DNA of 64,000 nt from an uncultured Gemmatimonadaceae bacterium (GCA_964519125.1 CAZFIS010000001.1:3825-67824); one strand, 5' to 3'. Positions 22,592 to 59,289 are shown, numbered from the stretch's first letter. Translations and numbers: made by a program. The notes: generated by a model not told the origin, from the sequence alone.

Positions 22592-22755
22592 CGGCTTTTC
22601 GCTCCAGTGACTCGGGTCCAGCAACATAGGACGCGGTATGCGACGACAAGGTTGCGCGTGTGGCCTTGTCCCACGGCCCCGCGCTCATCCATCGTGTTCC
22701 TGACGGCTGTCGTCCCTTCCGGGCGATGGGCCCGGTCGAGCGACGAGCGTAGAGC

Positions 22756-36719: not shown

Positions 36720-36722
36720 ACC

Positions 36723-37858: not shown

Positions 37859-37900
37859 CGGTCCCGCCCTCCCTTCACATCCTCCGGGACGACGCCGAGC

Positions 37901-44159: not shown

Positions 44160-44230
44160 CGCGCTGACATGACAGCTCGCCAGTCGGGGACCCGTGACGT
44201 TCAGAGGCAAACAGCTGTGTCGTGTTCTCC

Positions 44231-44259
44231 TTGCGCACCGGGAGACCCCGTCGAATAAT
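44231..44259 (+). promoter_or_regulatory. Candidate internal sigma70-like promoter upstream of tssA-tssBC-hcp-tssEFG
   Basis: TTGCGC (44231-44236), a 17-nt spacer, then AATAAT (44254-44259). It lies in the 157-nt tssM-tssA gap, the largest non-coding gap inside the cluster. Confidence 0.25.
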
Positions 44260-44316
44260 GCACCTCCCCCCGAAGCGGGGTGAGCGCCGTAGAGGCCCAA
44301 ACCCACGAATCCGAGA

Positions 44317-45459
44317 TTGACCGAGAGGACCCTCCTGTCCACGCTCACGATGGATGACCGTCAGGCGGTCACGTTCGAGGCGCTCCTGCGCCCCCTGTCG
44401 GGTCCGGATCCGTCGGGCCGGCCTCTCCGGTACGACCCTATCTATGACCGGATCAAGGAAGCGCGCAGGGCCGATGATCCTGCTGCGCCGAGGGACATCT
44501 GGTCCAAGGATCTCAAAGTCGCGGACTGGAACACCGTCCGGCGCCTGTGCGAGGGGGCCCTGACCGGCGAGACCAAGGACCTGCAGATCTGCGCGTGGCT
44601 GGCCGAGGCGTGGCTCCACCTCGAAGGTCTGAGGGGGCTCCGGCGCGGGGTGGATCTGTTGCTCCAGATGTCGGAGAGCTACTGGGAGTCCGTGCACCCC
44701 GCCCTTTCGGAGGGTGTGGACTTCAGGGTCGCGCCCTTCGTATGGGTGAACGAGAAGCTACCCGCCGCCCTGGGCGAGATCCACATCGTGGCTCCTGAGG
44801 ACGAGCCGACCCTTACCGCGACCTGGAACGACTGGAAGAAGGCCCTCTGGCTCGACAAGGTGAGCGCTCGTCGCCCTCACGATGCCGAGACCCTCCGCGA
44901 GCTCGAGTCCTCGCCGACGCTTGCCGGCTTCCGGGCAAGGAGCGCGGAGACGCCCGAGTCGTTCTTCCGCGACAATCTCGCGGTGCTCGACGACACCATC
45001 GACGTCACGCGTGCGCTCGAAGCCTTCCTGGACGACCGCTTGGAGAAGCAGTCTCCGAGCCTGGTTCGCTTCCGGGAGGGCTTGGACGAGATCCGCACGT
45101 GGATCGGGGTGGTCGTGCGGGAGGGGACTTTCAGACCCGAGACGCAAGGGGAATCCGAAATGGCCGACGAGACGAGCCCCGAGGAGTCCGAAGCGACCGT
45201 GTCGGCCGGGACGGCCGAGCCCGGCCCGCGGGAGGGAGGTCGGATCCGAGGGCGCACGGATGCCTATCGCATGCTTCGCGAGGCCGCGGATTACCTGAAG
45301 GAGGTGGAGCCCCACAGCCCGACTCCGTATCTGGTCTTGAAGGCGGTCTCGTGGGGAGACAAGAGCCTGGACGACCTCCTGCGCGAGTTCGTGCGGGAAG
45401 GTCTCAATCTGGAGGCGCTGTTCACGTTCCTCGGCATCGAGCCGGATGATGAACGTTGA
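44317..45459 (+). CDS. tssA: T6SS protein TssA (ImpA N-terminal domain family)
   Basis: This is track ORF 44317-45459, starting at TTG. An alternative ATG at 44350 would give MDDRQAV.... The ImpA_N signature is present: GRPLRYDPIYDRIKEARRADDP....W..DLKVADW..V..LC..AL...TKDLQICAWLAEAWLHLEGLRGL..G..LL.....YW..VHP. Confidence 0.85.
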   Translation: MTERTLLSTLTMDDRQAVTFEALLRPLSGPDPSGRPLRYDPIYDRIKEARRADDPAAPRDIWSKDLKVADWNTVRRLCEGALTGETKDLQICAWLAEAWLHLEGLRGLRRGVDLLLQMSESYWESVHPALSEGVDFRVAPFVWVNEKLPAALGEIHIVAPEDEPTLTATWNDWKKALWLDKVSARRPHDAETLRELESSPTLAGFRARSAETPESFFRDNLAVLDDTIDVTRALEAFLDDRLEKQSPSLVRFREGLDEIRTWIGVVVREGTFRPETQGESEMADETSPEESEATVSAGTAEPGPREGGRIRGRTDAYRMLREAADYLKEVEPHSPTPYLVLKAVSWGDKSLDDLLREFVREGLNLEALFTFLGIEPDDER

Positions 45460-45561
45460 TGCGGCGAAGCGGGAGGGTGGGGTTCTCCTGATGTGTGTGG
45501 GTCATCGTCGCGTAGGCGGCGGGGCCGTCCTCGTTTCCGGCTGTCAGTGAGGAGGTTAACC

Positions 45562-46077
45562 ATGGCAGAAAGCACTCAGCACAAGCTCGATCGCGTCCGT
45601 CCACCGCGGGTCCAGATTACGTACGACGTGGAGATCGGAGATGCGATCCAGAAGAAGGAGCTCCCGTTCGTCATGGGTGTGATCTCAGACCTGGCGGGGA
45701 GCCCCGCGGAGGCTCCGCCGCCCATGAAGGACCGGAAGTTCATCATGATCGACCGGGACAACTTCAACGACGTGATGTCGGCCGTGGGCCCGCGGGTCGC
45801 GTTCCAGGTGGCCAACCGCCTCACGGAGGAGGACTCGAAGCTGAACGTCGAACTCACCTTTTCCAGCATGGACGATTTCGACCCCGCGAACCTGGTGCAG
45901 CAGGTGGAGCCGCTGCGCAAGCTCTTCGAGGCGCGTCAGCGTTTGAGCGACCTGCGGGCGAAGCTGGACGGGAACGACGAGCTCGATCGCCTGCTCAGCG
46001 AGATCGTCGAGAACACCGATGGCCTGAAGGAGATTCAGGACGCGACGGCCGAGCCGGAAGAGGAATCCGGGGAGTAG
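45562..46077 (+). CDS. tssB: T6SS contractile sheath small subunit TssB
   Basis: The ATG at 45562 follows GAGGAGG. It is in frame with track ORF 45493-46077. The signature reads RPPRVQITYDVEIGDAIQKKELPFVMGVISDLAG...RKFIMIDRDNFNDVM...LTFSSMDDFDPANLV. Confidence 0.9.
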   Translation: MAESTQHKLDRVRPPRVQITYDVEIGDAIQKKELPFVMGVISDLAGSPAEAPPPMKDRKFIMIDRDNFNDVMSAVGPRVAFQVANRLTEEDSKLNVELTFSSMDDFDPANLVQQVEPLRKLFEARQRLSDLRAKLDGNDELDRLLSEIVENTDGLKEIQDATAEPEEESGE

Positions 46078-46138
46078 CTCGCGGAGCCTGAATCCCACAA
46101 GACCAGCCAACGTCCATCATTGATCTGGAGAAGGTCCC

Positions 46139-47626
46139 ATGGCAACGAAGAAGGCAGAGTCCACCGACGGCGGAGGCGCGGCGACCGCGGAGATGAGCCT
46201 GCTCGATCGCATCATCTCGGAAGGCCGCATGGCCCAGGACGACGCCCAGGCCGCTCACGCGAGACACCTCGTGGGAGAGTTCGCGAGCCAGGTTCTCTCG
46301 GAAGAGATTACCGTCTCGGCCGACACGGTGGCGATGATCAACGCTCGCATCGCTCGTATCGACGAGCTGCTCAGCGCGCAGCTCAACGAGATCATGCACG
46401 ATTCCGACTTCCGGAAGCTCGAGGCCAGCTGGAGAGGGCTCGCGTATCTCGTATTCAACAGCGAGACCGGAACGCGCTTGAAGATCCGGGTGCTCGCGGC
46501 GAGCCAGAAGGAGGTCCAGGCGGACCTGGACAAGGCGGTGGAGTTCGACCAGAGCCGTTTGTTCAAGATGCTGTACGAGGAAGAGTACGGTACCTTCGGC
46601 GGCAATCCCTACAGCTGCCTCGTGTGTGACTACGAGTTCGGACGCCATCCGCAGGACATCGCACTGCTCGAGAAGCTCTCGAACGTCGCGGCGGCCGCGC
46701 ACGCTCCCGTCATCGCAGCGGCCAGCCCCCGGATGTTCGACCTGCAGAGCTTTACGGGGCTCGGCGGGCCGCGCGACTTGGCGAAGGTCTTCGAGAGCTC
46801 GGAGCTCATCAAGTGGAACTCGTTCCGCGCGACCGAGGACTCCCGCTACGTGGCTCTCGTCCTGCCGCACATCCTCATGCGTCTTCCGTACGGTCCCGAC
46901 ACGAAGCCGGTCGACGGCTTCGACTTCGTCGAGGAGGTGGACGGGCGGGATCACTCCAAGTACCTGTGGGGGAACGCGGCATGGGCGCTCGGGCAGCGCA
47001 TCACGGACGCGTTCTCGCAACACGGCTGGACGGCCGCCATTCGCGGCGTCGAGGGTGGCGGAATCGTGGAGGGGCTGCCTACGCACACCTTCAAGACGGA
47101 CGAGGGCGACATCGCGCTCAAGTGCCCCACGGAGATCGCCATCACGGACCGGCGCGAGAAGGAGTTGAGCGACCTCGGGTTCATCGCCCTGTGCCACTGC
47201 CAGGGAACGGACTACGCCGCCTTCTTCGGCGGTGCGACGGCGCAGAAGCCCACGGTCTACAACACGCCTCAGGCCAACGCCAACGCTCGGGTCTCGGCAC
47301 AGCTCCCGTACGTTCTCGCAGCGTCGCGGTTCGCCCACTACCTCAAGTCGATCATGCGCGACAAGGTGGGAAGCTTCATGACCCGGGCGAACGTGGAGAA
47401 CTTCCTCAACCGATGGATCTCGGATTACGTCCTCATCAACGACGACGCCCCTCAGTCCGCGAAGGCGAAGTATCCGCTGAGCGAAGCGCGTGTCGACGTG
47501 GTCGGGGTGGCGGGTAAGCCGGGCGTCTACTCGGCGACCGTGTTTCTGAAGCCGCACTTCCAGCTCGAGGAGCTGACCGCGTCCATGCGCCTGGTGGCCG
47601 AGTTGCCCCCGCCCGCGGGTGGCTGA
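46139..47626 (+). CDS. tssC: T6SS contractile sheath large subunit TssC
   Basis: 495-aa ORF with SLLDRII...IDELLSAQLNEIMHDSDFRKLEASWRGLAYLV...YGTFGGNPYSCLVCDYEF...AAAAHAPVIAAASP, the canonical TssC pattern. Confidence 0.95.
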   Translation: MATKKAESTDGGGAATAEMSLLDRIISEGRMAQDDAQAAHARHLVGEFASQVLSEEITVSADTVAMINARIARIDELLSAQLNEIMHDSDFRKLEASWRGLAYLVFNSETGTRLKIRVLAASQKEVQADLDKAVEFDQSRLFKMLYEEEYGTFGGNPYSCLVCDYEFGRHPQDIALLEKLSNVAAAAHAPVIAAASPRMFDLQSFTGLGGPRDLAKVFESSELIKWNSFRATEDSRYVALVLPHILMRLPYGPDTKPVDGFDFVEEVDGRDHSKYLWGNAAWALGQRITDAFSQHGWTAAIRGVEGGGIVEGLPTHTFKTDEGDIALKCPTEIAITDRREKELSDLGFIALCHCQGTDYAAFFGGATAQKPTVYNTPQANANARVSAQLPYVLAASRFAHYLKSIMRDKVGSFMTRANVENFLNRWISDYVLINDDAPQSAKAKYPLSEARVDVVGVAGKPGVYSATVFLKPHFQLEELTASMRLVAELPPPAGG

Positions 47627-47654
47627 TCGGATTCCCGGAGGCGGACGGGGGCGT

Positions 47655-47673
47655 GGGCCCGTGGTCCGGGCCC
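47655..47673 (+). other. GC hairpin in the tssC-hcp intergenic region (possible mRNA processing, stability or attenuation element)
   Basis: GGGCCCG-TGGTC-CGGGCCC forms a 7-bp all-GC stem with a 5-nt loop, 29 nt after the tssC stop. No U-tract follows. The hcp SD (GAGGAGG) lies 48 nt downstream. Confidence 0.3.
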
Positions 47674-47732
47674 GCCCCTCGCCGTCGAAGAACTGCCAAG
47701 GATGATTTCGAGAGCCACACGAGGAGGATTGG

Positions 47733-48218
47733 ATGGACATCGTTTTGATGAAGGTGAAGGACGTTCCGGGCCAGACGCAGATCAACGGCTACGCGGACTA
47801 CATGGAGCTGTTCTCATACAGCCACGGGATCGCGCAGCAGGTCACGGCCAACGTCAGCAACGCCGACCGCACGACCGGCCGGCCGATTCACCAGGACTTC
47901 GCGGTGACGAAGGACGTGGACAAGGCGACCCCCTCGCTGCTCCAGGGGTGCAACTCGGCGAACGTCTACAGCTCGGTGGAGATCCTGGTGGGCCGCAACG
48001 ACGACGGCAACATCATCAAGTTCTTCAGCTACACGCTGACCGACGCCATCATCTCGTCGATCTCCGTGAGCGGTGGAGGCGGCGGCAAGCCCGTCGAGTC
48101 CATCACGTGGAACTACAGCAAGATCGAGTGGACCTACTACGCGCAGAAGGAAGCGGGCGGCGCGGGCGGCAACGCGGTTGCCTCCTGGGATGTGGCACTG
48201 AACAAGGCTGCTAGCTGA
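47733..48218 (+). CDS. hcp: T6SS inner tube protein Hcp (TssD)
   Basis: 161-aa ORF with GAGGAGG 6 nt upstream. The sequence is Hcp-like: MDIVLMKVKDVPGQTQ..GYADYMELFSYSHGI...GRPIHQDFAVTKDVDKATPSLLQGC...I.W.Y.KIEWTY. Confidence 0.9.
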   Translation: MDIVLMKVKDVPGQTQINGYADYMELFSYSHGIAQQVTANVSNADRTTGRPIHQDFAVTKDVDKATPSLLQGCNSANVYSSVEILVGRNDDGNIIKFFSYTLTDAIISSISVSGGGGGKPVESITWNYSKIEWTYYAQKEAGGAGGNAVASWDVALNKAAS

Positions 48219-48226
48219 GCTTCACG

Positions 48227-48694
48227 TTGCTTCGCGACACGAGGTCCACGCAGGGAGCCCGGGCGCTGCTGTTCGACCGACTGGTCGATCTGGATCCGTC
48301 CGATCCGGTCGAGCAGCGGCCGCTCCGGGTTCTCTCGCTCGAGGAGATGTTGGAGTCCGTGCGGCGGGAGCTCGAGCGGCTTCTCAACACACGGTCTCCG
48401 ACGCCTCCCGAGGAGTTGGAGGGGAGGGAGTGGACGGTCCTCGATTGGGGCCTCCCCGACTATTCGGGCTGGTACACCCGCTCGGCTGTGTCCCAGGAGC
48501 GGCTGGCTCGACTCATCGAGGCGACGATTCGAGCCTTCGAGCCCAGGATGATCGACCCTCACGTGATTGTGAAGCCCACGGAAGGCAACGATCGCATGCT
48601 GATCGTCCACATCGACGGTGCTGTCCGGGTGGGCACGATGCTCGAGCCCGTCTCTTTCCCACTGGCGCTCGAAGGAGGGCCCTCACGGGGGTAG
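48227..48694 (+). CDS. tssE: T6SS baseplate protein TssE (gp25-like)
   Basis: 155-aa ORF with a TTG start 8 nt after the hcp stop. It has LLFDRLVDLDP...SVRRELERLLNTRSP...LPDYS and the GPW/gp25-like C-terminal part. Confidence 0.85.
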   Translation: MLRDTRSTQGARALLFDRLVDLDPSDPVEQRPLRVLSLEEMLESVRRELERLLNTRSPTPPEELEGREWTVLDWGLPDYSGWYTRSAVSQERLARLIEATIRAFEPRMIDPHVIVKPTEGNDRMLIVHIDGAVRVGTMLEPVSFPLALEGGPSRG

Positions 48695-48704
48695 CAAGGC
48701 GCAG

Positions 48705-50525
48705 ATGGCAGACGACGCGCAAGCGGAACTCCTCCGGTACTACCTGTCCGAGCTCACCTATCTCCGGGAGATGGGCTCGGCGTTCGCGGATGAATATCCC
48801 AAGGTCGCCAACCGGCTGGAGTTGAGCCCGGACGAGAGTCCGGACCCGCACGTCGAGCGACTGTTGGAGGCGTTCGCCTTCCTCACGGCGCGCGTCCAGC
48901 GCAACCTCGACCTGCAGTTTCCCGAGATCAGCTCGGCGCTTCTCGACCTCCTGTATCCCCACTACCTCACGCCCGTCCCGTCGATGACGGTCGTGCGCTT
49001 CGAGCCGGATCCGGAGCAGGGGATGCTGACGACCGGGTATGAGGTCCCGGCGCACGCGCCACTGTACGCGGAGGCTCGCGGCACCGGGGGGCTGTCCGCC
49101 AGGTTCCGGACCTGCTACCCGGTCACGTTGTGGCCCCTGCGGGTGACCTACGCCGGTCTCGAGTCGAGCAGCCAGTACGACTTCCTGGACGGGCGCAGCG
49201 ACATCGTCAGCGTCATTCGCATCCACATCGAAGTCGAGGGGATGGCACTCGAAGACCTGGAGATGACCTCGCTCCGCTTCTATCTCAACCGTGAGATGCG
49301 CGCAGCGACCGATCTCTACGAATTGATCTTCGCGCAGCTCGAGGGAGTGATGCTGCTGCAGGAGGGCTCGAGCCGACCCGTTGATCTGGGCTCGGGCTCG
49401 GTCCGCCCCGTCGGGTTCGGTCCGGACGAGGCTGTGCTGCCCTATCCGCGCCAGGCCCAACCCGGATATCGGCTCCTGCAGGAGTACTTCACGTTTCCGC
49501 GGAAATTCCTCTTCGTGGACGTGGACGGGCTGGACCGGGGGATGTCGGGCAACGCGTTCGATCTTCTACTCCTGCTCGGGCGGTCCCCTGAGACGGACCT
49601 GATGATCGACGCGGACACGTTCGCGTTGGGCTGCACACCCGCGATCAACCTGTTCCCGAAGACGACCGAGCCCGTCCGGTTGGACCAGACGAAGTCGGAG
49701 TATCGTCTGGTTCCCGACGTGCACCGGGAGGCCAGTACCGAGATCCACTCGGTACTTTCGGTGTCTTCGTCCATGGACGACGAGGAAGAGCCGAAGCGGC
49801 TCAGTCCCTACTATTCGTTCGGCCACGCGTCGTCGCGCGAGGTGGAAAGCGTGTTCTGGGTGACGCGGCGCGTCCCCACGGGTCGGCGGGAGATCCCCGG
49901 CACGCAGATGATGTTGTCGTTGGTCGACCTCGACTTCGACCCGCGAGTCCCCGCCGGTGAGACCGTCTACGCGCATACCCTGTGCACCAACCGGCGGCTC
50001 GCTGGGCAGCTCCCCGTGGGGGCACGGCTCACGACCGAGATCGGTGCCCCCGTGTCGTCTATCGAGACCCTCCACAAGCCCACGCCCCAACTCGATCCTC
50101 CGCTGGGTGGGGAGACACGCTGGCGGCTCGTCTCGCACCTGTCCCTGAACCACCTCTCGTTGGAGAACGGCCCGGAGGGGCTGGCAGCGCTCCGCGAGAT
50201 CCTGCTGCTGTACAGCGACTACGACAACAAGTCGGCGCATCGGCAGATCAACGGGATCCGCGAGATGCGCAGCCGCCCGGTCGTCGAGCGCCTCGGCAGG
50301 GAGGCGTGGAGAGGATTCGCTCGGGGCACGGAGGTGCGACTGGTCTTCGATCCCGCCGCATTCCCCGGCGCGAACCCGCTTCTGTTCGCGTCGACGCTGC
50401 GGCATTTTTTCGCGCTGTACGCGTCGATCAACTCCTTTACCCGGTTGGTGGTGGAGGACGCTCGCCGACCGGGTGAGATCTGGAAAAAATGGCCGCCGCT
50501 CGCAGGAACACGAGAGCTCCTGTAG
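48705..50525 (+). CDS. tssF: T6SS baseplate protein TssF
   Basis: Track ORF 48618-50525 is trimmed to the ATG at 48705. The TssF signature is LLRYYLSELTYLREMGSAFADEYPKVANRLEL...DPHVERLLEAFAFLTARVQRNLDLQFPEISSALLDLLYPHYLTPVPS. Confidence 0.9.
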   Translation: MADDAQAELLRYYLSELTYLREMGSAFADEYPKVANRLELSPDESPDPHVERLLEAFAFLTARVQRNLDLQFPEISSALLDLLYPHYLTPVPSMTVVRFEPDPEQGMLTTGYEVPAHAPLYAEARGTGGLSARFRTCYPVTLWPLRVTYAGLESSSQYDFLDGRSDIVSVIRIHIEVEGMALEDLEMTSLRFYLNREMRAATDLYELIFAQLEGVMLLQEGSSRPVDLGSGSVRPVGFGPDEAVLPYPRQAQPGYRLLQEYFTFPRKFLFVDVDGLDRGMSGNAFDLLLLLGRSPETDLMIDADTFALGCTPAINLFPKTTEPVRLDQTKSEYRLVPDVHREASTEIHSVLSVSSSMDDEEEPKRLSPYYSFGHASSREVESVFWVTRRVPTGRREIPGTQMMLSLVDLDFDPRVPAGETVYAHTLCTNRRLAGQLPVGARLTTEIGAPVSSIETLHKPTPQLDPPLGGETRWRLVSHLSLNHLSLENGPEGLAALREILLLYSDYDNKSAHRQINGIREMRSRPVVERLGREAWRGFARGTEVRLVFDPAAFPGANPLLFASTLRHFFALYASINSFTRLVVEDARRPGEIWKKWPPLAGTRELL

Positions 50526-51559
50526 TCGAGGAGCTTCGCGAGGGCGCGTACGCCTTCGATTTCTTCCAGGTGGTGCGTATCCTGGAAGCGATGGCTGTGG
50601 GCGCCTCACCCGTCGGCACGGGGTCCGATCCGTCGCTCGAGGCCGTGCGATTCCGCTCCGATCCGTCCTTGGCCTTTCCGGCCAGTGAGATCGTCGACGT
50701 GCGCCTGGGGGAGTTTCCGGAAGAGCCGGCCGAAGTGGTGGTCAGCTTCCTGGGACTGGCGGGCGAGCAGGGCCCGTTGCCGCGCCCGTTCACGGAGCTG
50801 ATCCTGCGACGGATCGCAGACCGGGATACGGCGGCGCGCGATTTCCTGGACATCTTCAACCACCGACTCGTTTCCCTGCTGTACCGGGCCCGCGAGAAGC
50901 ATCGCGTGGGCCTGCGGATCCAGCCGCCCGAAGAGAGCCGGCTCGCAGACATCGGCTTCGCCCTCGTGGGCCTCGGCGCCTCCCCTCTCCGGGACCGCAT
51001 GGGGTTCGCGGATCGCTCGCTTCTTTTCTATGCTGGTACCCTCTCCCAGGGGCGTCGTACGGCCGTAGGGCTGGAGGGCCTGCTCGCGGCGCACTTCCAT
51101 GCCGTGCTCGGAGCGCGGAGCGAGTATGACGGGGGCGTCCACGTCCGCGAGTTCGTGGGGCGCTGGCACGCGCTCGAACTCGATCAAGGGACGGCGCTGG
51201 GTGCCGTCGATGGCCATCGGGAGCTCGGCGTGGATGCCGTCCTCGGTCACCGGGTCTGGGACCAGCTCGGGATGATCGAAGTCGTACTCGGTCCCCTCGA
51301 TCTGGAGAGCTTCCAGCGCTTCCTGCCCGGAGGAGACGCCCTCGAGCCGTTGAGGGACATGGTCACCTTCTATCTGAGGGGTGACGTGGATTTCGTCATT
51401 CGCCTCGTCCTTCGCGCGGAGGACGTTCCCGCGACGGTGTTGACGGCCGGATCCGGGGCCGCGCGTCTGGGTCTGACTTCCTGGCTCAAGACCCGTCCGT
51501 TCCGGAACGACGCCGCCGATATCGTCCTCGGTCCGAGATCCAGCGCCCCCACGGTCTGA
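50489..51559 (+). CDS. tssG: T6SS baseplate protein TssG
   Basis: 356-aa ORF that overlaps tssF by 37 nt. The TssG N-terminal signature is YAFDFFQVVRILE....P.G.GSDP..EAVRFRSDPSLAFPASEI. Confidence 0.9.
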   Translation: MAAARRNTRAPVVEELREGAYAFDFFQVVRILEAMAVGASPVGTGSDPSLEAVRFRSDPSLAFPASEIVDVRLGEFPEEPAEVVVSFLGLAGEQGPLPRPFTELILRRIADRDTAARDFLDIFNHRLVSLLYRAREKHRVGLRIQPPEESRLADIGFALVGLGASPLRDRMGFADRSLLFYAGTLSQGRRTAVGLEGLLAAHFHAVLGARSEYDGGVHVREFVGRWHALELDQGTALGAVDGHRELGVDAVLGHRVWDQLGMIEVVLGPLDLESFQRFLPGGDALEPLRDMVTFYLRGDVDFVIRLVLRAEDVPATVLTAGSGAARLGLTSWLKTRPFRNDAADIVLGPRSSAPTV

Positions 51560-51575: not shown

Positions 51576-54500
51576 TTGCCCTCCGGAGCCAAACCCCTGA
51601 GCACGTCCGAATCGATTCTGAGGCGGGTGTTCAAGCTCGAGCCCGGAGAGGGCCGCAAGGTCCTGCTGTTCGCGCTGCTGGCCGGGCTGATCCAGGGCGG
51701 GGTCATGGTGGGGCTCACCGCTTCGGATACGCTGTTCCTGTCGAGGGTGGGATTCGAGAAGTTGCCGTTCGTCTTCATGGCGACGCCGTTCGTCATGCTG
51801 GCGTACGTGCCGGCGTTCGCCTTCCTCATCAGCCGTCTGGGAACCCCGCGTACGCTCGAGTGGACGCTGGTGGTGCTGGCGATCGGGGGCGGCGGGCTCT
51901 TCGTCTGGATCGCGCTGGCTTCGTCGGGCGGCTCAGCGGAGGGCGGGGTCGGGCTTGTCTACTACGTGGCCCGCATCTGGGCCGATCTGTGCTATACGGC
52001 CCTGTACAGTCTCTTCTGGAACTTCACGGACACGTTCTTCGACATCCAGGACGCGAAGCGACTGTTCCCCCTCTTCAGCGCCGGAATGGCCGCCGGAGCC
52101 ATGATCGGCGGTGGGCTGGTGGCCGTGATCTCCCAGACGATCGGAGTCGCGTGGCTCTACTTGTTCTGGTCGGCCATCGCGCTGCTCTCCCTTCCGGTCG
52201 TGGCCGGCATCAGGAGGCGGTTCGACATCCTGCAGGAGGGAGAGTTCGAAGGCGAGACCGGGCTGTGGGAGCAGTTGAAGGAGACGAGGGTCGCGCTCTT
52301 CCGCTCCCGCTTCGTGCTGATCCTGGTCAGCGCGATCGTCGCGGTCGTCTTCCTGAGCTCGATCAACGAATACGAGTACCTGCGGATCCTCTCAGGGCCG
52401 CTCAACGAGGCCCAACTGGGATCCTTGCTGGGTCGGCTCCTCGTCCTGGTGAACGTCTTCAACGTCCTCTTCAGCCTCTTCGTCTTCAATCGGCTGGTCT
52501 TGAGGGTGGGGGTGGGTAACGTCGCCATCCTCCAGCCGCTGACCTACCTGGCGGTCTTCTACTTCCTCCTGTTTCAGGGGGGGGTCGGAGCGGCGATCTT
52601 CGGGTTCGTCGCCTTCCAGGGCATCCTCCCCTCCATCGAGTACAACAACCAGAACTTTCTCTTCAACGCGGTGCCGCAGGCGGTCAAGCAGCAGGTGCGG
52701 ACCGCCGTGGAGGGACTCGCGGAGCCGCTCGCCACGGCCCTGGCCGGAGCCCTTCTCCTCTTGCTCGCGCGTTTCCTTCCCTCCGTGCGCATCGCCGCGC
52801 TCGGTTTCCTGCTGGCAGGTGGGTACCTGGGCATCGCCGTGCTGCTGAGGAACGCCTACCTCCCGTCTTTGGTGAAGAACCTGAGGAGAGGGTGGCTGGA
52901 CCTCTCACGGCCCGCCGCAGAAGCGCTCTCGGGGCTCGGGTCCGCGGAGGAGGCTCGGCTTCGGGAGATGGCCGCGCAGGGCGACGGCGAGCTCGCGCGG
53001 TGTGCGTTGAGGATTCTGTCCATCAACAATCCCCAGGCGGGGTTCAAGGCGACGCTCCAGTACCTGAAGAGGACGCCAGACGACAGGATCTCGGAGGCGC
53101 GGTTCTTCGTGGAGGCCCTGTTGGAGCGGGCCGGGCCGGATGCCACACGGGAGTTCCTCGACTGGGTCGACCAGGGGAGCGATACGCTGGGAGCGAGGTT
53201 CCTCGAGGAGATGGGAGGCCACGGGCTCATCATGCCCACCGAGGTGAAGGGTCTCGTCCGGTCGGAGGAGCCCGCCGAGGTGGCGGCGGCCGTGGTCGTG
53301 CTGTGGCGGTCGTGGGATCCCCAGGACAGGCTCCTCGCGGCGGAAGGGCTCGTACGGCTCCTGAGCGGCTCGGAGGCGGAGATCGTCGCGGGGCTGCGCA
53401 CCATCGGGAGGCTGCGCGACGAGACGCTGGCCCGGTTCGCGGCCTCTCATCTCGTCGGGGGGAGCGAGGCGGTGCAGCGCGAGGCGCTGGCTTCGTTGCG
53501 GAGCATCGTGACGCCGAACTCCACTGCGCTGGTTCCCGACATCCTCGACAGCCTCGCTCTCGTGGGCGACCGCGGGCAGTACGACGGGCTGGAGGTGCTC
53601 GGGAGGATCGCCGACCCTACGTGTATCGCGCGTCTGCTCGACGTCTCGGTCGACTTCTCTCCTCCCGTGCGGCGCAGCGTCCTGCGGGTCCTGGAGAGGA
53701 TGGGGCTGCGCAGCGTGCCGGCGTCCGTCGCCGTGTTCACGGATCGTCGCCACGCGTACCCCGCGCGCGCGATCGCTGCGCGCTTCCTCGGCACCGCGGC
53801 CAGCCCCCAGCTCGAAGCCTTATGGCCCGGCGTTATCCAGCGGGAGCTGGCGCAGGCCGACCAGTTCCGCTCCTTCCACCGCACGCTGACGGCCGTGTCG
53901 CTTTCCACGTCGGGCATCCGCATCCTGCGCCGTTTCTACCGCGACACGCAGGATCGCACGGTGGACTTCATCCTCGAGGTCCTGCACATCGCCGGCAGGC
54001 TCCCGTCCTTCGAGATGCTGTCGTCCTCGCTGCGGTCGGATCTCCCGAAGGAGCGGGCCAACGCCCTGGAGACCGTCGAGCAGGGTGTGCCGCGGTATCT
54101 CTTCAAGCGCCTGCGCTCCCTGCTCGTGGATCCCGGAGCGGCATCCGAGGCGGGGGCGAGCGAAGGCTTGACGGTGGGCCCGTCGGTCGAGGAGATCCTG
54201 GACGCGGCCCTGCAGAGCCCCTTCGCTTCGGAGGCGGCCGCGGCCGCCGACGCTTCGTGGGTCACCGAGAACCCCGAGATCCTGGCCAAGCTGCGCAGCC
54301 GCCTGGCGGACCTCCGCGGGGAGATCTACCGCGAGACCGTGGTCACCCTGGCGGCCGAAGGCCAGGAGGGGATGACCCCGGTCGACATCATGGACTTCCT
54401 GGCCGCGGCGCCGTTCTTCGACAACCTTCGCGTGGGCGACCTCGAGGAGATCGCCGTGCGCGCGGAGGTGATGGAGCTCGAGCCGGGAGCCTACCTCTTC

Positions 54501-54764
54501 CGCGAGGGTGAGCCGGCGGACCGTGCGTTCGTCATCGCCAAGGGTCGGGCGAGCGTGGAAGGAGAGGTCGTGGAGGCCGGCATCCTCCTGGGCGGCGAGG
54601 CGCTCGGGACGGCGGAAACCTATGCCTCCACGGGCGTCTCGGAGGGGGTAACGGTCGTGTGCGTCCGGTCCCGGCCTGTGATGGACCTCGCGAACGTGAG
54701 CTCTGCGCTGGGCATCGAGCTCATCCGCCATGCAGCGGGAGTGCACGGTGTCCGAGCGCTCTAG
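51576..54764 (+). CDS. Three-part fusion: polytopic transporter-like (MFS / ATP-ADP-translocase-like) membrane domain + HEAT-like repeats + C-terminal cyclic-nucleotide-binding-like domain
   Basis: 1062-aa ORF with a TTG start 16 nt after the tssG stop. Residues ~1-430 contain ~11-12 hydrophobic helices (the opening VFKLEPGEGRKVLLFALLAG... resembles TLC/Npt-type carriers). The middle ~500 aa are helical repeats (ARCALRILS, REALASLRSI, VRRSVLRVLERMG). The last ~120 aa (from 54390) form a CNB fold: FFDNLRVGDLEEIAVRAEVMELEPGAYLFREGEPADRAFVIAKGRASVE...LGGEALG. Confidence 0.75.
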   Translation: MPSGAKPLSTSESILRRVFKLEPGEGRKVLLFALLAGLIQGGVMVGLTASDTLFLSRVGFEKLPFVFMATPFVMLAYVPAFAFLISRLGTPRTLEWTLVVLAIGGGGLFVWIALASSGGSAEGGVGLVYYVARIWADLCYTALYSLFWNFTDTFFDIQDAKRLFPLFSAGMAAGAMIGGGLVAVISQTIGVAWLYLFWSAIALLSLPVVAGIRRRFDILQEGEFEGETGLWEQLKETRVALFRSRFVLILVSAIVAVVFLSSINEYEYLRILSGPLNEAQLGSLLGRLLVLVNVFNVLFSLFVFNRLVLRVGVGNVAILQPLTYLAVFYFLLFQGGVGAAIFGFVAFQGILPSIEYNNQNFLFNAVPQAVKQQVRTAVEGLAEPLATALAGALLLLLARFLPSVRIAALGFLLAGGYLGIAVLLRNAYLPSLVKNLRRGWLDLSRPAAEALSGLGSAEEARLREMAAQGDGELARCALRILSINNPQAGFKATLQYLKRTPDDRISEARFFVEALLERAGPDATREFLDWVDQGSDTLGARFLEEMGGHGLIMPTEVKGLVRSEEPAEVAAAVVVLWRSWDPQDRLLAAEGLVRLLSGSEAEIVAGLRTIGRLRDETLARFAASHLVGGSEAVQREALASLRSIVTPNSTALVPDILDSLALVGDRGQYDGLEVLGRIADPTCIARLLDVSVDFSPPVRRSVLRVLERMGLRSVPASVAVFTDRRHAYPARAIAARFLGTAASPQLEALWPGVIQRELAQADQFRSFHRTLTAVSLSTSGIRILRRFYRDTQDRTVDFILEVLHIAGRLPSFEMLSSSLRSDLPKERANALETVEQGVPRYLFKRLRSLLVDPGAASEAGASEGLTVGPSVEEILDAALQSPFASEAAAAADASWVTENPEILAKLRSRLADLRGEIYRETVVTLAAEGQEGMTPVDIMDFLAAAPFFDNLRVGDLEEIAVRAEVMELEPGAYLFREGEPADRAFVIAKGRASVEGEVVEAGILLGGEALGTAETYASTGVSEGVTVVCVRSRPVMDLANVSSALGIELIRHAAGVHGVRAL

Positions 54765-56805
54765 GCAGAGTCTCCGGGGCCTGACCCTCATGGTCCTCAC
54801 CCCGTGCTTGCTGTTCAGCGCGGCGGTCTCGGGGTGGGTGACGTACAAGGATCTCTACGACGTCATCCTGAACGACGGGTTCGAACAGAAGCTCGAGGCG
54901 GTGAGCACGGGTGTGGCTGCCTTCATCGACGGAGACACCCATCTCGCGTTGAGTCGGCCGACGCGCCTGACCGGGATCGCGGCGGATCCGTCGAAGCCGC
55001 TCCTGTGGGGACTGGACTCGGCGAACGATCGGCTCGTGACCATCGACGTGACGAACGGGGGTGCGACGCCGCTCGACACCGTCCCGGTGAGCGGCCTGAG
55101 CGGCCTCACCTACGACGCAGGGAACGCGCGCCTCCTGTCCGTGCGCCCTGCCACCGGGGAGTTGTTCGCGTTCGCGCCGTCCTCCGTCCGGCCCGTGCTC
55201 GTGGGTCACGTCCAGCCGGGTGCACGCGCTCTCGCCATCGACGCGTCGGGGAAGCACCTGGTGGTCGCGGGTCCGTGGGGGTTGAGAGGCTACACGCTGG
55301 CGGGGCCGAAGGGTGCGCCCACGCAGACCTGGACGAGCGAGACGAGCGTCGAAGCCGTCGCGGTGTCGCCTCGGACCGGAGCCTTGTACGGACTCCGGGG
55401 AGACGGGAGCGTCCTGGTCGCGGACAGCCTGGGCGCGCCGCTTCGGGAGGTGGGCGTCCTGAAGAGTACCGACGACGAGGGTGACCCCGGGCAGTTGCAC
55501 GAGGTGCGGGCGCTGGCGGCGAGCCCCGTCGCCCCCACCGTATTCGCGGCCGGAAGGCGCCTCATGGAGATCTCGCTCGACGACCTCACCGTCGAGGCCG
55601 AGCGGTTCCGGCGGGGGTACCGCAACGAGAATCTCCCGACCTACCAGGAGTACGTGGTGCCGATGCGGCGCATCAGGGACGCGCTGGACATCACGTACCT
55701 GTATACGCAGAACCTGGTGCCCGGGGACTCGATCGAGTACGTGATCGACAGCACACCGTTCGGCCCGGACTATTCGCCCATCGGCAGCCGGGAGGCGCTG
55801 GACACCGAGGCGGACGTGCGTGGCATGGACGCCTTGATGGAGCGGGGCTCCGTGTACTCGTCACGGATCGAGTACTCACCGGAGTGGGGCCTGCTGAAGT
55901 CGGCGTTCGCGCCGATCCTCGGGCACGACGGAAGGTCTGTGGGCATGGTCGGCACGGACATCTCCGTCTCCACGATCCGCGACCGGACGCAACTCGCCCT
56001 GGCCAAGGTCGGCCTGGTCACCGTCGTGATCCTCTTCCTCGGCGGGCTCGGCTCGCTGGCCATCTCCCTGCGCCTCGCCGGACCGCTGGCGGCCCTCCAG
56101 GAAGGGGCCACCCGCGTAGCCGCCGGCCGGGCGGGCGAGCCGATCGAGCTGCCCCGCCTGCGTGACCTCGCCGCCCTGACGAGCTCCTTCAACGAGATGA
56201 CGGACACCCTGACGTCCCTGGTCGACGAGTTGCACGAGGAAACCAGTCGGGTCGAGTCCATGCGGACCCGGAGACACCTGGCTCGCGAGTTGGCGCGGCG
56301 CGCGGCTTCGGCCGATCCGCTTCCCGACGGAGTAAGCGTGGAGTGGCGCGGGCCGAGCCCCCACGCGCCGGCTCCTTCGGGATTCGCCGTCGTGGGCGAG
56401 CCCCAACGCCCCTTCACCGCCGTGTGGCTCCGGCCGGAAGGCCCGGATGCTCTGGCCGGGTTGGCCGACCGGGAGGAGACCGCCTTGCTCGCCCGGCGGG
56501 CCGCGGAAGCCGAGCCGGCGTCGCCGGAGGCGCTGCTCTCGGCGCTGGAGCGGCTCCACGACGGGGAGGGCTTCCGCTTCGTGGTCGTCGACGCCGTGGA
56601 AGGTCGGGTGATCGTTTCCGCGGGCTCGCCCGTGCGGGCCGTCCTGGCGTCGGAGGGAGGGCGGGAGCGGCCCGTGGACCTGGCTCCCGGCCAGGCGTTC
56701 CGGGTGCCCTCCCGGTCCGCGCTCTCGCTCGTCCTGGGTTCGCCCGGTGCAGGGGACGCGCACGGGCCGGCCTGGGTCCTTCGCATGCGGGGGGCGACGG
56801 CATGA
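54730..56805 (+). CDS. Transmembrane sensor: periplasmic beta-propeller-like + Cache-like domains, TM, HAMP, C-terminal degenerate SpoIIE/PP2C-like domain
   Basis: 691-aa ORF that overlaps the upstream gene by 35 nt (an alternative ATG lies at 54790). It has an N-terminal TM helix. Blade-like repeats follow (LLWGLDSANDRLVTIDV, LTYDAGNARLLSV, LAIDASGKHLVVAG, VAVSPRTGALYGL). A Cache-like segment reads YLYTQNLVPGDSIEYVIDS...EWGLLKSAFAPILGHDGRSVGMVGTDISV. A second TM helix is followed by HAMP (AGPLAALQEGATRVAAGR...LTSSFNEMTDTL). The C-terminal ~190 aa align by eye to SpoIIE but lack the GGDFYD and GDVxGHG aspartates. Confidence 0.7.
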   Translation: MQRECTVSERSRQSLRGLTLMVLTPCLLFSAAVSGWVTYKDLYDVILNDGFEQKLEAVSTGVAAFIDGDTHLALSRPTRLTGIAADPSKPLLWGLDSANDRLVTIDVTNGGATPLDTVPVSGLSGLTYDAGNARLLSVRPATGELFAFAPSSVRPVLVGHVQPGARALAIDASGKHLVVAGPWGLRGYTLAGPKGAPTQTWTSETSVEAVAVSPRTGALYGLRGDGSVLVADSLGAPLREVGVLKSTDDEGDPGQLHEVRALAASPVAPTVFAAGRRLMEISLDDLTVEAERFRRGYRNENLPTYQEYVVPMRRIRDALDITYLYTQNLVPGDSIEYVIDSTPFGPDYSPIGSREALDTEADVRGMDALMERGSVYSSRIEYSPEWGLLKSAFAPILGHDGRSVGMVGTDISVSTIRDRTQLALAKVGLVTVVILFLGGLGSLAISLRLAGPLAALQEGATRVAAGRAGEPIELPRLRDLAALTSSFNEMTDTLTSLVDELHEETSRVESMRTRRHLARELARRAASADPLPDGVSVEWRGPSPHAPAPSGFAVVGEPQRPFTAVWLRPEGPDALAGLADREETALLARRAAEAEPASPEALLSALERLHDGEGFRFVVVDAVEGRVIVSAGSPVRAVLASEGGRERPVDLAPGQAFRVPSRSALSLVLGSPGAGDAHGPAWVLRMRGATA

Positions 56806-57206
56806 GCACGACGGTGACCCTGGCCGATCGCATCTTCCTCCTGCGTGGCCTGCCGGCGTTCTCGCGGCTCTACGACAGCGAGGTCGGCTCGATCGCCGCC
56901 GTATGCCGCGTGCGGACGTACGAGCCAGGAGAAACGATCTCCCGCCCCGGCCAGCCCCTCAGGCACCTCTACCTCGTCGCGAGCGGGCGGGTGCTCGACG
57001 AACGGGCTGGACCGCTTCCGGCGGTCTTCGGCGCCACCTCACTCCTCACCGGGCAGCCTCTGGACACGGCCCTGACCGCCGATCCGGAGGAGGGTGCCAC
57101 GTGCTTCCTGCTCGGCCGGGCGCACTTCTTCACGTTGGTCCACGAATATCCTCCACTCCTCGTGAACCTGCTGAACGAGTGGCGGGGCGGGTGGGCCGGG
57201 TCATGA
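56802..57206 (+). CDS. Small stand-alone cyclic-nucleotide-binding-like protein
   Basis: The ATG at 56802 overlaps the upstream stop (ATGA). It is in frame with track ORF 56343-57206. The CNB-like pattern is IFLLRGLPAFSRLYDSEVGSIAAVCRVRTYEPGETISRPGQPLRHLYLVASGRV...VFGATSLLTGQPLDTALTA. Confidence 0.7.
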   Translation: MSTTVTLADRIFLLRGLPAFSRLYDSEVGSIAAVCRVRTYEPGETISRPGQPLRHLYLVASGRVLDERAGPLPAVFGATSLLTGQPLDTALTADPEEGATCFLLGRAHFFTLVHEYPPLLVNLLNEWRGGWAGS

Positions 57207-58570
57207 CGATTCGACTCCAGAACCTGGTCATCATCCCTCCGATCTTTCTGATTCTGGCGCTCGCGGTCGGGTTCCTCGCCGATCGGGCGGCCAGGGAAGA
57301 GATCCTCTGGGGGCTCCACCAGGAGTCCGTGGCCCTCGCGGTCACGGTGGCGGACATGACGGGCGGGGCCACGATCGACCGCCTGTCGACGGGGGATGCG
57401 CTCGCGGAGCGGCGGGCGATGGCGCATCTCCGTGAGCTCGCTGGCCATGGCCAGGTGGAGGCCATCGTCCTCTATTCGCGCGCCGCGGGCCACGCCGTCC
57501 TCTCCTGGGACCGTGACAGCACCGCCCTTACGGTGAAGCAGGCGCTGTGGACCTCGAAGCTCACGAACCTGAAGAGCCAGGAGGTCGTGGGCGGTGTCGG
57601 GCCCTGGGGGCCGTATCCCGAAGCGCTCGTCGCGGCGGCCCCGATCTACGCCTCGGGCAACCCCTCGAACCCGCGAGGGGTTGCGGCCGTGATCATCGAC
57701 GCGAGCCGCATGACATCGGCTACCCAGGCGCTTCGGCGCGACTTCGCCCTGCTGGTGCTACTCGTGACCGGGCTCGGGATCGCGGCGGCGCTGTTCCTGT
57801 CCGTGCGGATCGGGCGGCAGGTAAGAGAGCTGGGACGTGTCGGCGCCACGGTCGCGGCCGGCGAGTACCGGGCTCCGGTCCAGGTTTCGGGGGTGAAGGA
57901 GGTCCAGGACCTGTCCAACACCCTGGGGACGATGGCGAGTATCCTGTCCGACGTGCTGTCCAGGGGCCGTCGCGCCCTGCTGGTCGGAGACGCCTTCCAA
58001 CTCAGCCACAACATGGCGGCTGCCTACAAGGAGGTACGCCTGGACGGTGCTCCCCCGCCCGAGGGATTGGAGGTCGGTTACAGCTCCCTGGGAGAGATCT
58101 CGCCGGGATGCTTCCACGGATGGACGGAAACTCCGCGCCATACGGTGCTCTGGGTCGGTGAGGTATCCGCGGGCGACTCCCTGGATCTCGCCATCGAGGC
58201 CGCCGCCGCGAACCGCGTGCTCGAGCGGGGACTACGGCATGGATCGCCCGAAGAGGTGGCCGGATCCATCTCGAACCTGTTCCACCTTTCCGCCCTCCAG
58301 ATCGCCTGGTTCACGCGTCCGATCGTCGGTGACCCCGAGGTCCGGGTCGCCGCCGGCACGGGAGCCCCCCTGACGAAGGGTGACTACTGCGTGATCCACT
58401 CGTTCCAGTCGGAGCACATGGATTCCCTCTCGGGCTCCCTTTCGCTCTTCAAGGATCTCCCCGCGGAGCAGGCGGCGAAGGAGGTCCCTCTGGCACTCCC
58501 CCGGACGTTCTCGGGTGCCTTGCTTCTCATTCGGCCGTTGCGCCCATCCTCTGAAGGAGACACATCGTGA
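57203..58570 (+). CDS. Transmembrane sensor: periplasmic domain, TM, HAMP, degenerate SpoIIE/PP2C-like domain (shorter paralogue-like partner of 54730-56805)
   Basis: The ATG at 57203 overlaps the upstream stop (ATGA). It is in frame with track ORF 56747-58570. There are two TM helices (LVIIPPIFLILALAVGFL and FALLVLLVTGLGIAAALFLSV). HAMP reads RIGRQVRELGRVGATVAAGEY...VQDLSNTLGTMASIL. The C-terminal part (GLEVGYSSLGEISPGCFHGW...VLWVGEVSAGDSLDLAIEAAAA...AAGTGAP...GDYCVIHSF) has SpoIIE-like spacing with the metal-binding Asp positions substituted. Confidence 0.7.
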   Translation: MTIRLQNLVIIPPIFLILALAVGFLADRAAREEILWGLHQESVALAVTVADMTGGATIDRLSTGDALAERRAMAHLRELAGHGQVEAIVLYSRAAGHAVLSWDRDSTALTVKQALWTSKLTNLKSQEVVGGVGPWGPYPEALVAAAPIYASGNPSNPRGVAAVIIDASRMTSATQALRRDFALLVLLVTGLGIAAALFLSVRIGRQVRELGRVGATVAAGEYRAPVQVSGVKEVQDLSNTLGTMASILSDVLSRGRRALLVGDAFQLSHNMAAAYKEVRLDGAPPPEGLEVGYSSLGEISPGCFHGWTETPRHTVLWVGEVSAGDSLDLAIEAAAANRVLERGLRHGSPEEVAGSISNLFHLSALQIAWFTRPIVGDPEVRVAAGTGAPLTKGDYCVIHSFQSEHMDSLSGSLSLFKDLPAEQAAKEVPLALPRTFSGALLLIRPLRPSSEGDTS

Positions 58571-59289
58571 CCCATCGGATTCGCCGTTCCGCGCGGCACA
58601 CCGTCCTCCTGATCGCCGCGATGAGCGCCTTCCTTCCGGGCACGGGGAGGGCACAGGAGGACTCGTCATCGGCGTGGTCGGTCGGCGCCGACGGTGAGCT
58701 CGTCTCGCAGTTCGTCTGGCGTGGGCTGGTGCTCAACAACCACCCGAGCCTCCAGCCGGAGGTCTACCTGGAGCACGGGAGCTTCGATCTCGGAGTCTGG
58801 GCCTCGTTCCCGTTCGATGGGAGCTACAGGGAGATCGATACGTACCTCTCGTGGTCACACAGCTTCTCTGCGGGCGAGCTCGACCTGAATGCCCAGGACT
58901 ACTACTACCCGCAGTATGCGGGGTTCTTCGACTTCAGCCAGGCCGCGGGGGGCCACACCGGCGAGCTGAGCGGGGCGTTCACGCCCTCCGTCGTGCCCCT
59001 GACGTTCACGCTCGCCTGGAATGCCTATGACGACCCGGACCACTCCCTGTTCGCGAAGGTGGGCGGCGAGCACTCCTTCGACGGCATCGTCGACCTGGAC
59101 GCCAACATCGGATTTCTCCTGAAGAACAGTCCCTACTACTACGGGGCGAGCGCCGGAGACGTGATGAACTACACGATCCGGGCGACGCGGAACTTCTCGC
59201 TGGCCCGGGTGCAACCGCACGTGTCGGTCGCCTTGACCCGCAGCCCTGTGCTTGGAAAGACCCTGTGGGTGTTCGCGGTCGGCCTGTGA
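58567..59289 (+). CDS. TorF-family-like outer-membrane beta-barrel (putative porin)
   Basis: Its GTG start overlaps the upstream stop (GTGA). It has a signal peptide (VLLIAAMSAFLPGTGRAQ). The motif SQFVWRGLVLNNHPSLQPEVYLEHGSFDLGVWASF resembles the TorF/Gcw_chp porin N-terminus (S.YvWRG......P..Q......G...G.W.S). Alternating beta-strand patterns run to a C-terminal aromatic residue (WVFAVGL). Confidence 0.65.
   Translation: MTHRIRRSARHTVLLIAAMSAFLPGTGRAQEDSSSAWSVGADGELVSQFVWRGLVLNNHPSLQPEVYLEHGSFDLGVWASFPFDGSYREIDTYLSWSHSFSAGELDLNAQDYYYPQYAGFFDFSQAAGGHTGELSGAFTPSVVPLTFTLAWNAYDDPDHSLFAKVGGEHSFDGIVDLDANIGFLLKNSPYYYGASAGDVMNYTIRATRNFSLARVQPHVSVALTRSPVLGKTLWVFAVGL

Follow-up and report, generated by a model that had tools for sequence, protein, structure and literature searches.

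A nucleotide transporter-like NTT-HEAT-cNBD protein heads a HAMP, CNB-like and PP2C-fold gene cassette beside a type VI secretion cluster in one Longimicrobiales lineage

The NTT-HEAT-cNBD gene and its protein

The window analyzed here is a stretch of 64,000 nucleotides from an uncultured Gemmatimonadaceae bacterium (GCA_964519125.1, CAZFIS010000001.1:3825-67824); the organism derives from salt-marsh metagenomes. Directly downstream of a type VI secretion system (T6SS) cluster the window contains an open reading frame (ORF) at 51576..54764 (plus strand) that encodes a carrier domain of the NTT type, a HEAT-repeat solenoid and a C-terminal domain with the cyclic nucleotide-binding (CNB) fold. 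We refer to it as the NTT-HEAT-cNBD gene. The ORF was found to be a genuine gene of 1062 codons with a GC content at third codon positions (GC3) of 0.90, and the databases hold one identical protein of 1062 amino acids and one with 84% identity. Its start codon is ambiguous and may be TTG 51576 or GTG 51627. Close relatives are named 'Npt1/Npt2 family nucleotide transporter' by NCBI. We are confident that the protein belongs to the NTT-HEAT-cNBD family and that its gene heads a portable gene cassette.

Pfam recognized TLC in residues 127-188 (24.4 bits, cut-off 21). HEAT_2 was found below threshold, and cNMP_binding (PF00027) in residues 966-1029 scored 27.4 bits, just below its cut-off of 27.5. 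In the scan against Pfam and NCBIfam the protein matched no T6SS family, and no homologue among the described Tss and Tag proteins was recognized. An AlphaFold2 (AF2) model based on 48 homologues (mean pLDDT 85.5, pTM 0.73) contained 12 long helices in residues 26-438, a helical-repeat solenoid in residues 456-944, and a beta-roll with flanking helices in residues 945-1057. The domain order carrier, HEAT, CNB, which the original prediction had read from the translation, agrees with Pfam, the AF2 model, Foldseek and the profile searches against PDB.

The 12-helix carrier domain of the NTT/TLC type comprises residues 1-440 (51576..52895, plus strand) and was recognized by Pfam TLC, hydropathy, the model, Foldseek and profile searches. 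It has a 6+6 topology resembling that of the major facilitator superfamily (MFS), with 12 transmembrane (TM) helices and a central cytoplasmic loop at residues 216-244 in the AF2 model, and the hydropathy plot concurs. The best Foldseek matches in PDB were the ATP/ADP translocators AtNTT1 and Chlamydia pneumoniae NTT1 (9j3l, 9j3n, and 9j3m; E ~5e-9). The target-normalized TM-score (TMt) to the solved NTTs was 0.63-0.73, with the value of 0.73 belonging to AtNTT1. Generic MFS transporters ranked behind, so that the comparison of this domain with MFS and TLC carriers, suggested along with the original prediction, was led by the NTT/TLC matches. A search of PDB with the single carrier-domain sequence gave no match; the NTTs were reached by the family profile only, and this profile matched NTTs only (E 3.5e-8).

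In the profile alignment the segment LFWNFTDTFFDIQDAKRLFPLFSAG aligns to the NTT signature FWGFANEITKIHEAKRFYALFG around TM4-TM5 (FWGFAN....EAKRFY.LFG), and the family invariants W148, K161, and R162 are present in it. Every polar carrier residue that is invariant in the family was found in the window protein (D51, D152, K161, R162, E265, N357, N360, R375, and E379). The canonical NTTs (TLC/AAA, TC 2.A.12; AtNTT1 and C. pneumoniae NTT1) are the best structural match and share with the window protein the 12 TM helices and the common motif FW.F....(E/D)AKR.(F/Y).LF. They differ from it by an identity of only ~16%, with a profile alignment that covers TM1-9 only, and by the absence of the cytoplasmic HEAT-CNB extension of ~600 residues.

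The HEAT/PBS-HEAT-like solenoid occupies residues 456-944 (52941..54407, plus strand). It was recognized by the helix pairs of the model and by the family profile, which matched HEAT-type alphaRep proteins in PDB with an E-value of 2.8e-39. The CNB-fold domain follows in residues 945-1057 (54408..54746, plus strand) and is identified by PF00027, by phmmer matches to PKG and MloK1, by Foldseek, and by the family profile. It superposes on the CNB domain of MloK1 with a TMt of 0.78 and a root mean square deviation of 2.5 Å (Foldseek), and the family profile matched the CNB domains of PKG (E 4e-27), PKA, and MloK1 in PDB.

The phosphate-binding cassette (PBC) of this domain, GGEALGTAETYAST (G1006-G-E-A-L-G-T-A-E-T-Y1016-A-S-T; 54591..54632, plus strand), is degenerate. 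Its columns were set by three agreeing alignments, i.e., a pairwise alignment to MloK1, an alignment of 48 family sequences, and an alignment of the family profile to PKG. In the latter, the family consensus G-e-e-a-L-f-g-e-e-v-r-t aligns without gaps to the PKG cassettes F-G-E-R-A-L-L-Y-D-E-P-R-S-A. The column of the canonical Arg holds Tyr1016, as had been claimed from a manual alignment. The column of the canonical Glu, one position after the Gly, holds Gly1007. A Glu was claimed to be retained as well; Glu1008 does exist, but it is located one residue past the canonical column. The profile alignment, which had been named beforehand as a check that could overturn the claim, recovered neither the canonical Arg nor the canonical Glu, and no Arg was found in any register of the PBC segment GGEALGTAETYASTGVSEG. 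Because Tyr replaces the PBC Arg, the domain is most probably not an ordinary cAMP/cGMP sensor, in agreement with the original prediction, and on the best reading canonical binding of cAMP or cGMP would not take place.

The degeneration of the PBC is a feature of the clade to which the window belongs and not of the whole family. Among 50 distinct fused CNB domains the Arg was kept in 24, and Glu and Arg were both kept in 15. The window protein was compared with seven relatives of 67-84% identity, and five or more of these eight proteins are encoded beside a T6SS. Tyr or His is found in the Arg column in all of them, the Glu column is occupied by G, S, E, or D, and three have an Arg one position later. 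The Arg is also lost in a sister lineage (locus L086) that has no T6SS beside its gene, and the loss therefore probably predates the linkage to the T6SS. The sperm Na+/H+ exchanger SLC9C1, which was among the Foldseek matches, also carries a transporter and a cytoplasmic CNB domain on one chain. With TM-scores of ~0.1 there is no fold-level similarity, and the analogy is one of design only. SLC9C1 binds cAMP via a canonical cassette.

The fusion itself was considered unusual in the original prediction, which turned out not to be the case. Bacterial NTT-HEAT and NTT-HEAT-cNBD fusions were described earlier as one monophyletic family that is broadly conserved and found in many phyla (Major et al., 2017, Genome Biol Evol 9:480, PMC5381601), and the window protein has 40% identity (E 6e-89) to the NTT domain of the Sphingomonas wittichii NTT-HEAT protein in the data set of that study. 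Besides this direct homology, the window protein shares with the family the order of NTT carrier (PF03219 type), HEAT and cNBD and a small cNBD gene nearby, which according to the available part of the paper is often found a few nucleotides downstream of the fusion gene. The same part of the paper proposes that ATP uptake is tuned by cAMP and the cNBD (Major et al., 2017), whereas the cNBD of the window protein lacks the contacts to the cyclic phosphate. It makes no mention of HAMP, PP2C-fold, or partner-switching neighbors or of T6SS linkage. The chlamydial NTT-HEAT protein is homologous as well, with 23% identity to the window protein over ~880 residues of carrier and HEAT (E 9e-51).

The five-gene cassette and its conservation between phyla

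The NTT-HEAT-cNBD gene is the first of five translationally coupled genes in the window, being followed by genes for HAMP sensor 1, a stand-alone CNB-like protein, HAMP sensor 2, and a Gcw_chp-family protein. The gene for HAMP sensor 1 (54730..56805, plus strand) overlaps the 3' end of the NTT-HEAT-cNBD gene. It encodes a membrane protein of 691 amino acids; besides a large periplasmic region the protein has a HAMP domain (Pfam HAMP) and a C-domain related to that of HAMP sensor 2. The CNB-like gene (56802..57206, plus strand; 134 amino acids) has ATGA overlaps at both ends. Its product scored 29.4 bits for PF00027, which is above the cut-off, and was also recognized by the hidden Markov model (HMM) of the family CNB domain. 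The ~130-residue stand-alone proteins in general were found to have the CNB fold, with E-values of 1e-5 to 1e-12 for this HMM. The PBC of the copy in the window lacks both Glu and Arg, and none of 71 distinct homologues kept both residues.

In HAMP sensor 2 (57203..58570, plus strand; 455 amino acids) two TM helices flank a periplasmic PAS/Cache-like domain and are followed by a HAMP domain and a PP2C-fold domain (AF2 pLDDT 85.3). Foldseek matched its alpha/beta C-domain to SpoIIE (5ucg), RssB (3f79), RsbX (3w40), and the RsbU domain of Rv1364c (3ke6), and the matches of the protein also included the sensor domains of WalK and DcuS. The assignment of the PP2C fold comes solely from structure prediction and Foldseek; with hhalign the C-domains of the two HAMP sensors matched the SpoIIE domain only weakly (E ~0.002-0.003, probability ~10%). 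The two C-domains matched each other with an E-value of 4e-8 (hhalign), and that of HAMP sensor 2 is homologous to the middle domain of the kinase-bearing protein of Niveispirillum irakense (E 2.5e-55). In an alignment of 39 family sequences no conserved metal-binding Asp was found in the PP2C-fold domain of HAMP sensor 2, which therefore looks like a pseudo-phosphatase.

The last gene of the cassette (58567..59289, plus strand; GTGA overlap) encodes a predicted outer-membrane protein of 240 amino acids of the Gcw_chp family (Pfam PF09694). Gcw_chp is the last cassette gene in Gemmatimonadota and follows the cassette in L004, L008, L084, L085, and L086. An ORF of 607 codons at 56747-58570 was rejected as a single gene. 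It is a composite of the region of the CNB-like gene (56802-57206), which is located in another frame, and the gene for HAMP sensor 2 (57203-58570). HAMP sensor 1 has a large periplasmic insertion at residues ~77-300 with faint matches to DUF4394/DUF6923 (beta-propeller-like); short versions, such as the copy of 437 amino acids from N. irakense, do not have this insertion.

A scan of one genome per species gave 80 loci, which were then searched with the window proteins and the proteins of the N. irakense locus as probes. The loci belong to Gemmatimonadota, Verrucomicrobiota, Kiritimatiellota, Lentisphaerota, Cyanobacteriota, Bacteroidota, Balneolota, Spirochaetota, Cloacimonadota, Armatimonadota, Myxococcota, Actinomycetota, and Pseudomonadota. 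Downstream neighbors were counted in the 67 non-redundant loci with at least 5.5 kb of downstream sequence. A HAMP sensor gene was found downstream in all 67 loci, the gene of ~130 codons for a CNB-like protein in 63, and a second HAMP gene resembling that of HAMP sensor 2 in 53. A SpoIIE-type PP2C was present in 44 loci and a STAS protein in 27. HAMP sensor 1 has a paralogue in the sensor half of the true PP2C protein. At the N. irakense locus the order is HAMP-SpoIIE, NTT-HEAT-cNBD, HAMP, the gene of 130 codons, HAMP-HATPase_c_2 (RsbW-like), and STAS. The conserved partners of the gene are thus the downstream HAMP, CNB-like, and PP2C-fold genes, and not the T6SS.

In most other phyla the cassette is extended by genes for an RsbU-type PP2C, an RsbW-like kinase, and a STAS protein, a set that would provide a partner-switching output. 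This resembles the RsbU/RsbV/RsbW systems, as most loci of the family carry HAMP-SpoIIE/PP2C, HATPase_c_2 kinase, and STAS genes beside the NTT-HEAT gene, and the PP2C fold of HAMP sensor 2 in the window resembles SpoIIE, RsbX, Rv1364c, and the inactive PP2C domain of RssB. What sets the T6SS-linked cassettes, that of the window among them, apart from the Rsb systems is that they have PP2C-fold sensors only, which lack the conserved metal-binding Asp, and neither kinase nor STAS gene nearby. To our knowledge no partner-switching system with a transporter-HEAT subunit is known. A keyword search of a paper library did not find the conserved HAMP/PP2C neighborhood of the NTT-HEAT family, and a literature search linking partner switching with HEAT gave nothing usable.

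Other genes accompany the cassette in some lineages. The cassette is accompanied by a SET-domain gene in 24 of the 67 loci and by a gene for a small methyltransferase (MTS) likewise in 24, mostly in Alphaproteobacteria, Verrucomicrobiota, and Lysobacterales (e.g., L001:6710-8172). A gene for an Orn/DAP/Arg decarboxylase is located near the NTT-HEAT-cNBD gene in Azospirillaceae (L001:5476-6696) and in a Gemmatimonadota relative (L086:1289-2551). In L086, the sister lineage without T6SS, the CNB-like gene is located directly after the NTT-HEAT-cNBD gene, and the cassette holds a homologue of Cys-loop ligand-gated ion channels (L086:8734-9906; Neur_chan_LBD, Neur_chan_memb).

The family is also found without such neighbors. 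In Chlamydia muridarum (L087:8001-11196) a gene for an NTT-HEAT protein of 918 amino acids is followed after 25 nucleotides by a gene for a PF00027 protein of 137 amino acids, and the pair adjoins acpP, fabG, fabD, fabH, recR, and bamA. To trace the locus, homologues were sought with the NTT-HEAT sequence of C. trachomatis given in the supplementary data of Major et al. We rejected the idea that the chlamydial NTT-HEAT protein is CT590, beside RsbU (CT588) and the pseudo-phosphatase CT589, since the C. muridarum locus has no PP2C gene within 8 kb. A literature search for CT590 and RsbU gave nothing usable.

Linkage to the T6SS cluster

The T6SS cluster upstream of the cassette was identified by Pfam at 30891..51559 (plus strand). 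It has the order clpV, vgrG, a MORN-like gene, a DUF4280 gene, a SPOR gene, an ORF of 154 codons (37394-37858) without Pfam match, and tssK, tssL, tssM, tssA, tssB, tssC, hcp, tssE, tssF, and tssG, with the genes from tssL to tssG spanning 39229-51559. The hcp gene is located at 47733-48218 (161 amino acids, GC3 0.92, Pfam Hcp), where it overlaps an ORF of 170 codons (47702-48214) without match. The gap between tssG and the NTT-HEAT-cNBD gene is 16 nucleotides if translation starts at TTG 51576 and 67 nucleotides if it starts at GTG 51627; in the T6SS-linked relatives it is 65-114 nucleotides. A scan of the junction found no terminator-like or promoter-like site. The location of the gene in a T6SS operon context, directly after tssG, was therefore as originally described.

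We know of no described T6SS accessory gene that matches the NTT-HEAT-cNBD gene. Literature searches touching T6SS accessory genes, including T6SS in Gemmatimonadota, found nothing relevant. Like the known T6SS regulators (PpkA/PppA/Fha, TagQRST, and TagF), the cassette contributes genes for membrane sensors inside a T6SS cluster, and PppA has a PP2C-type fold like one element of the cassette. The differences are that Pfam found no FHA, Ser/Thr kinase, PpkA, PppA, TagF, or TagQRST domain in the scanned genes of the cluster, that the PP2C-fold domains lack the conserved catalytic Asp, and that the linkage is limited to one clade.

T6SS genes were found upstream of the homologue in five (L004, L005, L009, L084, and L085; 65-84% identity) of the 67 loci for which 5 kb or more of upstream sequence was available. 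In the window and in these five loci alike, the five-gene cassette comes after genes in the order tssM-A-B-C-hcp-E-F-G. In the tree the window, L004, L005, L084, and L085 form one clade, with a Shimodaira-Hasegawa-like approximate likelihood ratio test (SH-aLRT) value of 100 and a stem length of 0.62; L009 was too short to be included. L006 is a further member of the clade, for which the contig of 2.7 kb does not cover the upstream region. The clade nests inside Gemmatimonadota copies without adjoining T6SS (L086, L007, and L008). The T6SS adjacency arose once, in a Longimicrobiales subclade, and co-occurrence with T6SS genes was found in this single clade and not across independent lineages. 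The original prediction named as its own refutation a transporter family with homologues lacking T6SS linkage, and this is largely what was found, since linkage is confined to 5 of the 67 loci in one shallow clade.

The genes downstream of the cassette differ among the T6SS-linked relatives. In L085 a gene of 392 codons with a match to Pfam Anthrax_toxA, a nucleotidyl-cyclase toxin family, is located directly downstream of the cassette on the opposite strand (L085:17694-18872, minus strand). It could be a candidate T6SS effector or a local source of cyclic nucleotide, and it has no counterpart in the window. Elsewhere in the window an M1-family aminopeptidase with three C-terminal HEAT_2 repeats is encoded at 20147-22627 (minus strand), which is unrelated to the NTT-HEAT-cNBD gene.

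Proposed function of the cassette

We propose that the NTT-HEAT-cNBD protein is the carrier/scaffold subunit of a membrane signaling complex built from the proteins of the cassette. The carrier domain (TLC, TC 2.A.12 type) would bind or move a nucleotide-like ligand, the cytoplasmic HEAT solenoid would scaffold the cytoplasmic PP2C-fold domains, and the CNB folds would serve as switch or latch modules in protein-protein contacts. In the lineage of the window the fused CNB has lost the Arg and the canonical Glu for the cyclic phosphate. In one Longimicrobiales subclade this old and portable cassette was joined as a whole to the 3' end of the tssA-tssG operon, where it is probably made together with sheath and baseplate and would most likely feed an envelope or nucleotide signal into T6SS activity. 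Taken as a whole, the T6SS step included, we assign this explanation a probability of roughly 0.4. Its parts are not equally firm. That the cassette forms one membrane signaling complex, and is a signaling module rather than a plain importer, appears reasonably probable, and the HAMP linkage, being universal in the free-living bacteria, favors signaling. That the complex modulates the T6SS in the lineage of the window is plausible and is proposed tentatively.

A number of observations weigh against the proposal. We know of no experiment on any member of the NTT-HEAT-cNBD family. The charged residues retained in the carrier domain would fit a working transporter as well as a sensor. In C. muridarum no HAMP or PP2C genes were found within 8 kb on either side of the NTT-HEAT gene, so the signaling genes are not obligatory partners of the carrier. 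An active PP2C, a kinase, and a STAS protein are absent from the T6SS-linked cassettes, in the window and within 8-10 kb in the relatives, and without a recognizable output near these cassettes there is no visible route to the T6SS. The cassette is probably co-transcribed with tssG and the sheath and baseplate genes, judging from spacing only. Finally, since only close relatives (65-84% identity) share the T6SS linkage, the synteny may reflect plain descent and not selection.

This last point leads to the alternative that has survived best, namely that the cassette is an independent signaling unit located beside the T6SS by inheritance, with no role in secretion. The cassette is self-contained and without T6SS in 62 of the 67 loci, including L007, L008, and the sister lineage L086 in Gemmatimonadota; the PBC Arg is absent from L086 too, so that its loss probably came before the linkage, and none of the cassette proteins contains a T6SS-related domain. 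However, the cassette is tightly joined to tssG on the same strand (16-67 nucleotides in the window and 65-114 nucleotides in the relatives) with no terminator-like or promoter-like site between them. The join has been kept down to 65% protein identity while the genes past the cassette have changed, and the branch leading to the T6SS-linked clade is long (0.62). We consider mere adjacency somewhat unlikely on these grounds.

A second alternative is that the protein is a working nucleotide importer or exchanger, with the HEAT and CNB parts only tuning transport, and that its position next to the T6SS lets the cell scavenge ATP and nucleotides from lysed neighbors. The closest solved folds and the sole sequence relatives in PDB are ATP/ADP translocators, and the NTT signature FW.F....AKR.F.LF is kept along with all family-invariant charged residues of the membrane domain. 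Uptake of ATP tuned by the cNBD was proposed in the earlier study (Major et al., 2017), the chlamydial copy has no signaling genes beside it, and making such a transporter along with a killing machine would be ecologically sensible. Against this, HAMP sensor genes follow in 67 of 67 loci from ~13 phyla of free-living bacteria, which is unlike the context of a metabolic importer, and PP2C-fold and partner-switching genes usually follow too. In addition, 62 of the 67 loci with enough upstream sequence have no T6SS beside the gene, the CNB regulator of the window lacks the contacts to the nucleotide phosphate, and identity to the characterized NTTs is only ~16%. We therefore regard this alternative as improbable.

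That the C-terminal domain is an ordinary cAMP/cGMP sensor, with the apparent Arg loss being an alignment error, is very improbable. In favor of this reading, the CNB fold is genuine, the canonical Arg is present in about half of the family, and the register is shifted by 3-4 residues in one pairwise alignment to PKG with a low score. On the other hand, the segment is devoid of Arg whatever the register, Gly1007 and Tyr1016 fall on the columns of Glu and Arg in the gap-free profile alignment to PKG, and in all eight related sequences Tyr or His occupies the Arg column while the Glu column is variable.

The proposal of a membrane signaling complex can be extended further. In its widest form, NTT-HEAT(-cNBD) proteins would be the ligand-sensing scaffold of a widespread undescribed complex with two HAMP/pseudo-PP2C sensors and a degenerate CNB adaptor. 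The complex would normally drive an RsbU/V/W switch and would have been rewired in the Longimicrobiales lineage to gate T6SS assembly or firing, replacing control of the PpkA/PppA/Fha type. We find this extended version speculative and unlikely.

Altogether, the observation that started this analysis stands with a correction of the position of the Glu, the novelty of the fusion does not, and the T6SS context is real but lineage-specific. Should the Longimicrobiales arrangement prove functional, a T6SS would have gained a new kind of sensory input; otherwise the protein would be a new member, unusually located, of a family that is known but unstudied. The conserved signaling neighborhood of the NTT-HEAT family is the more useful result. 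Many bacterial phyla have NTT-HEAT fusions, as do chlamydial pathogens and oomycetes, and these fusions have been discussed only as possible ATP importers. The near-constant HAMP, second CNB-like, and PP2C-fold companions, often with a full partner-switching set, point to signaling rather than feeding, and these conserved neighbors supply concrete interaction partners for the NTT-HEAT proteins.

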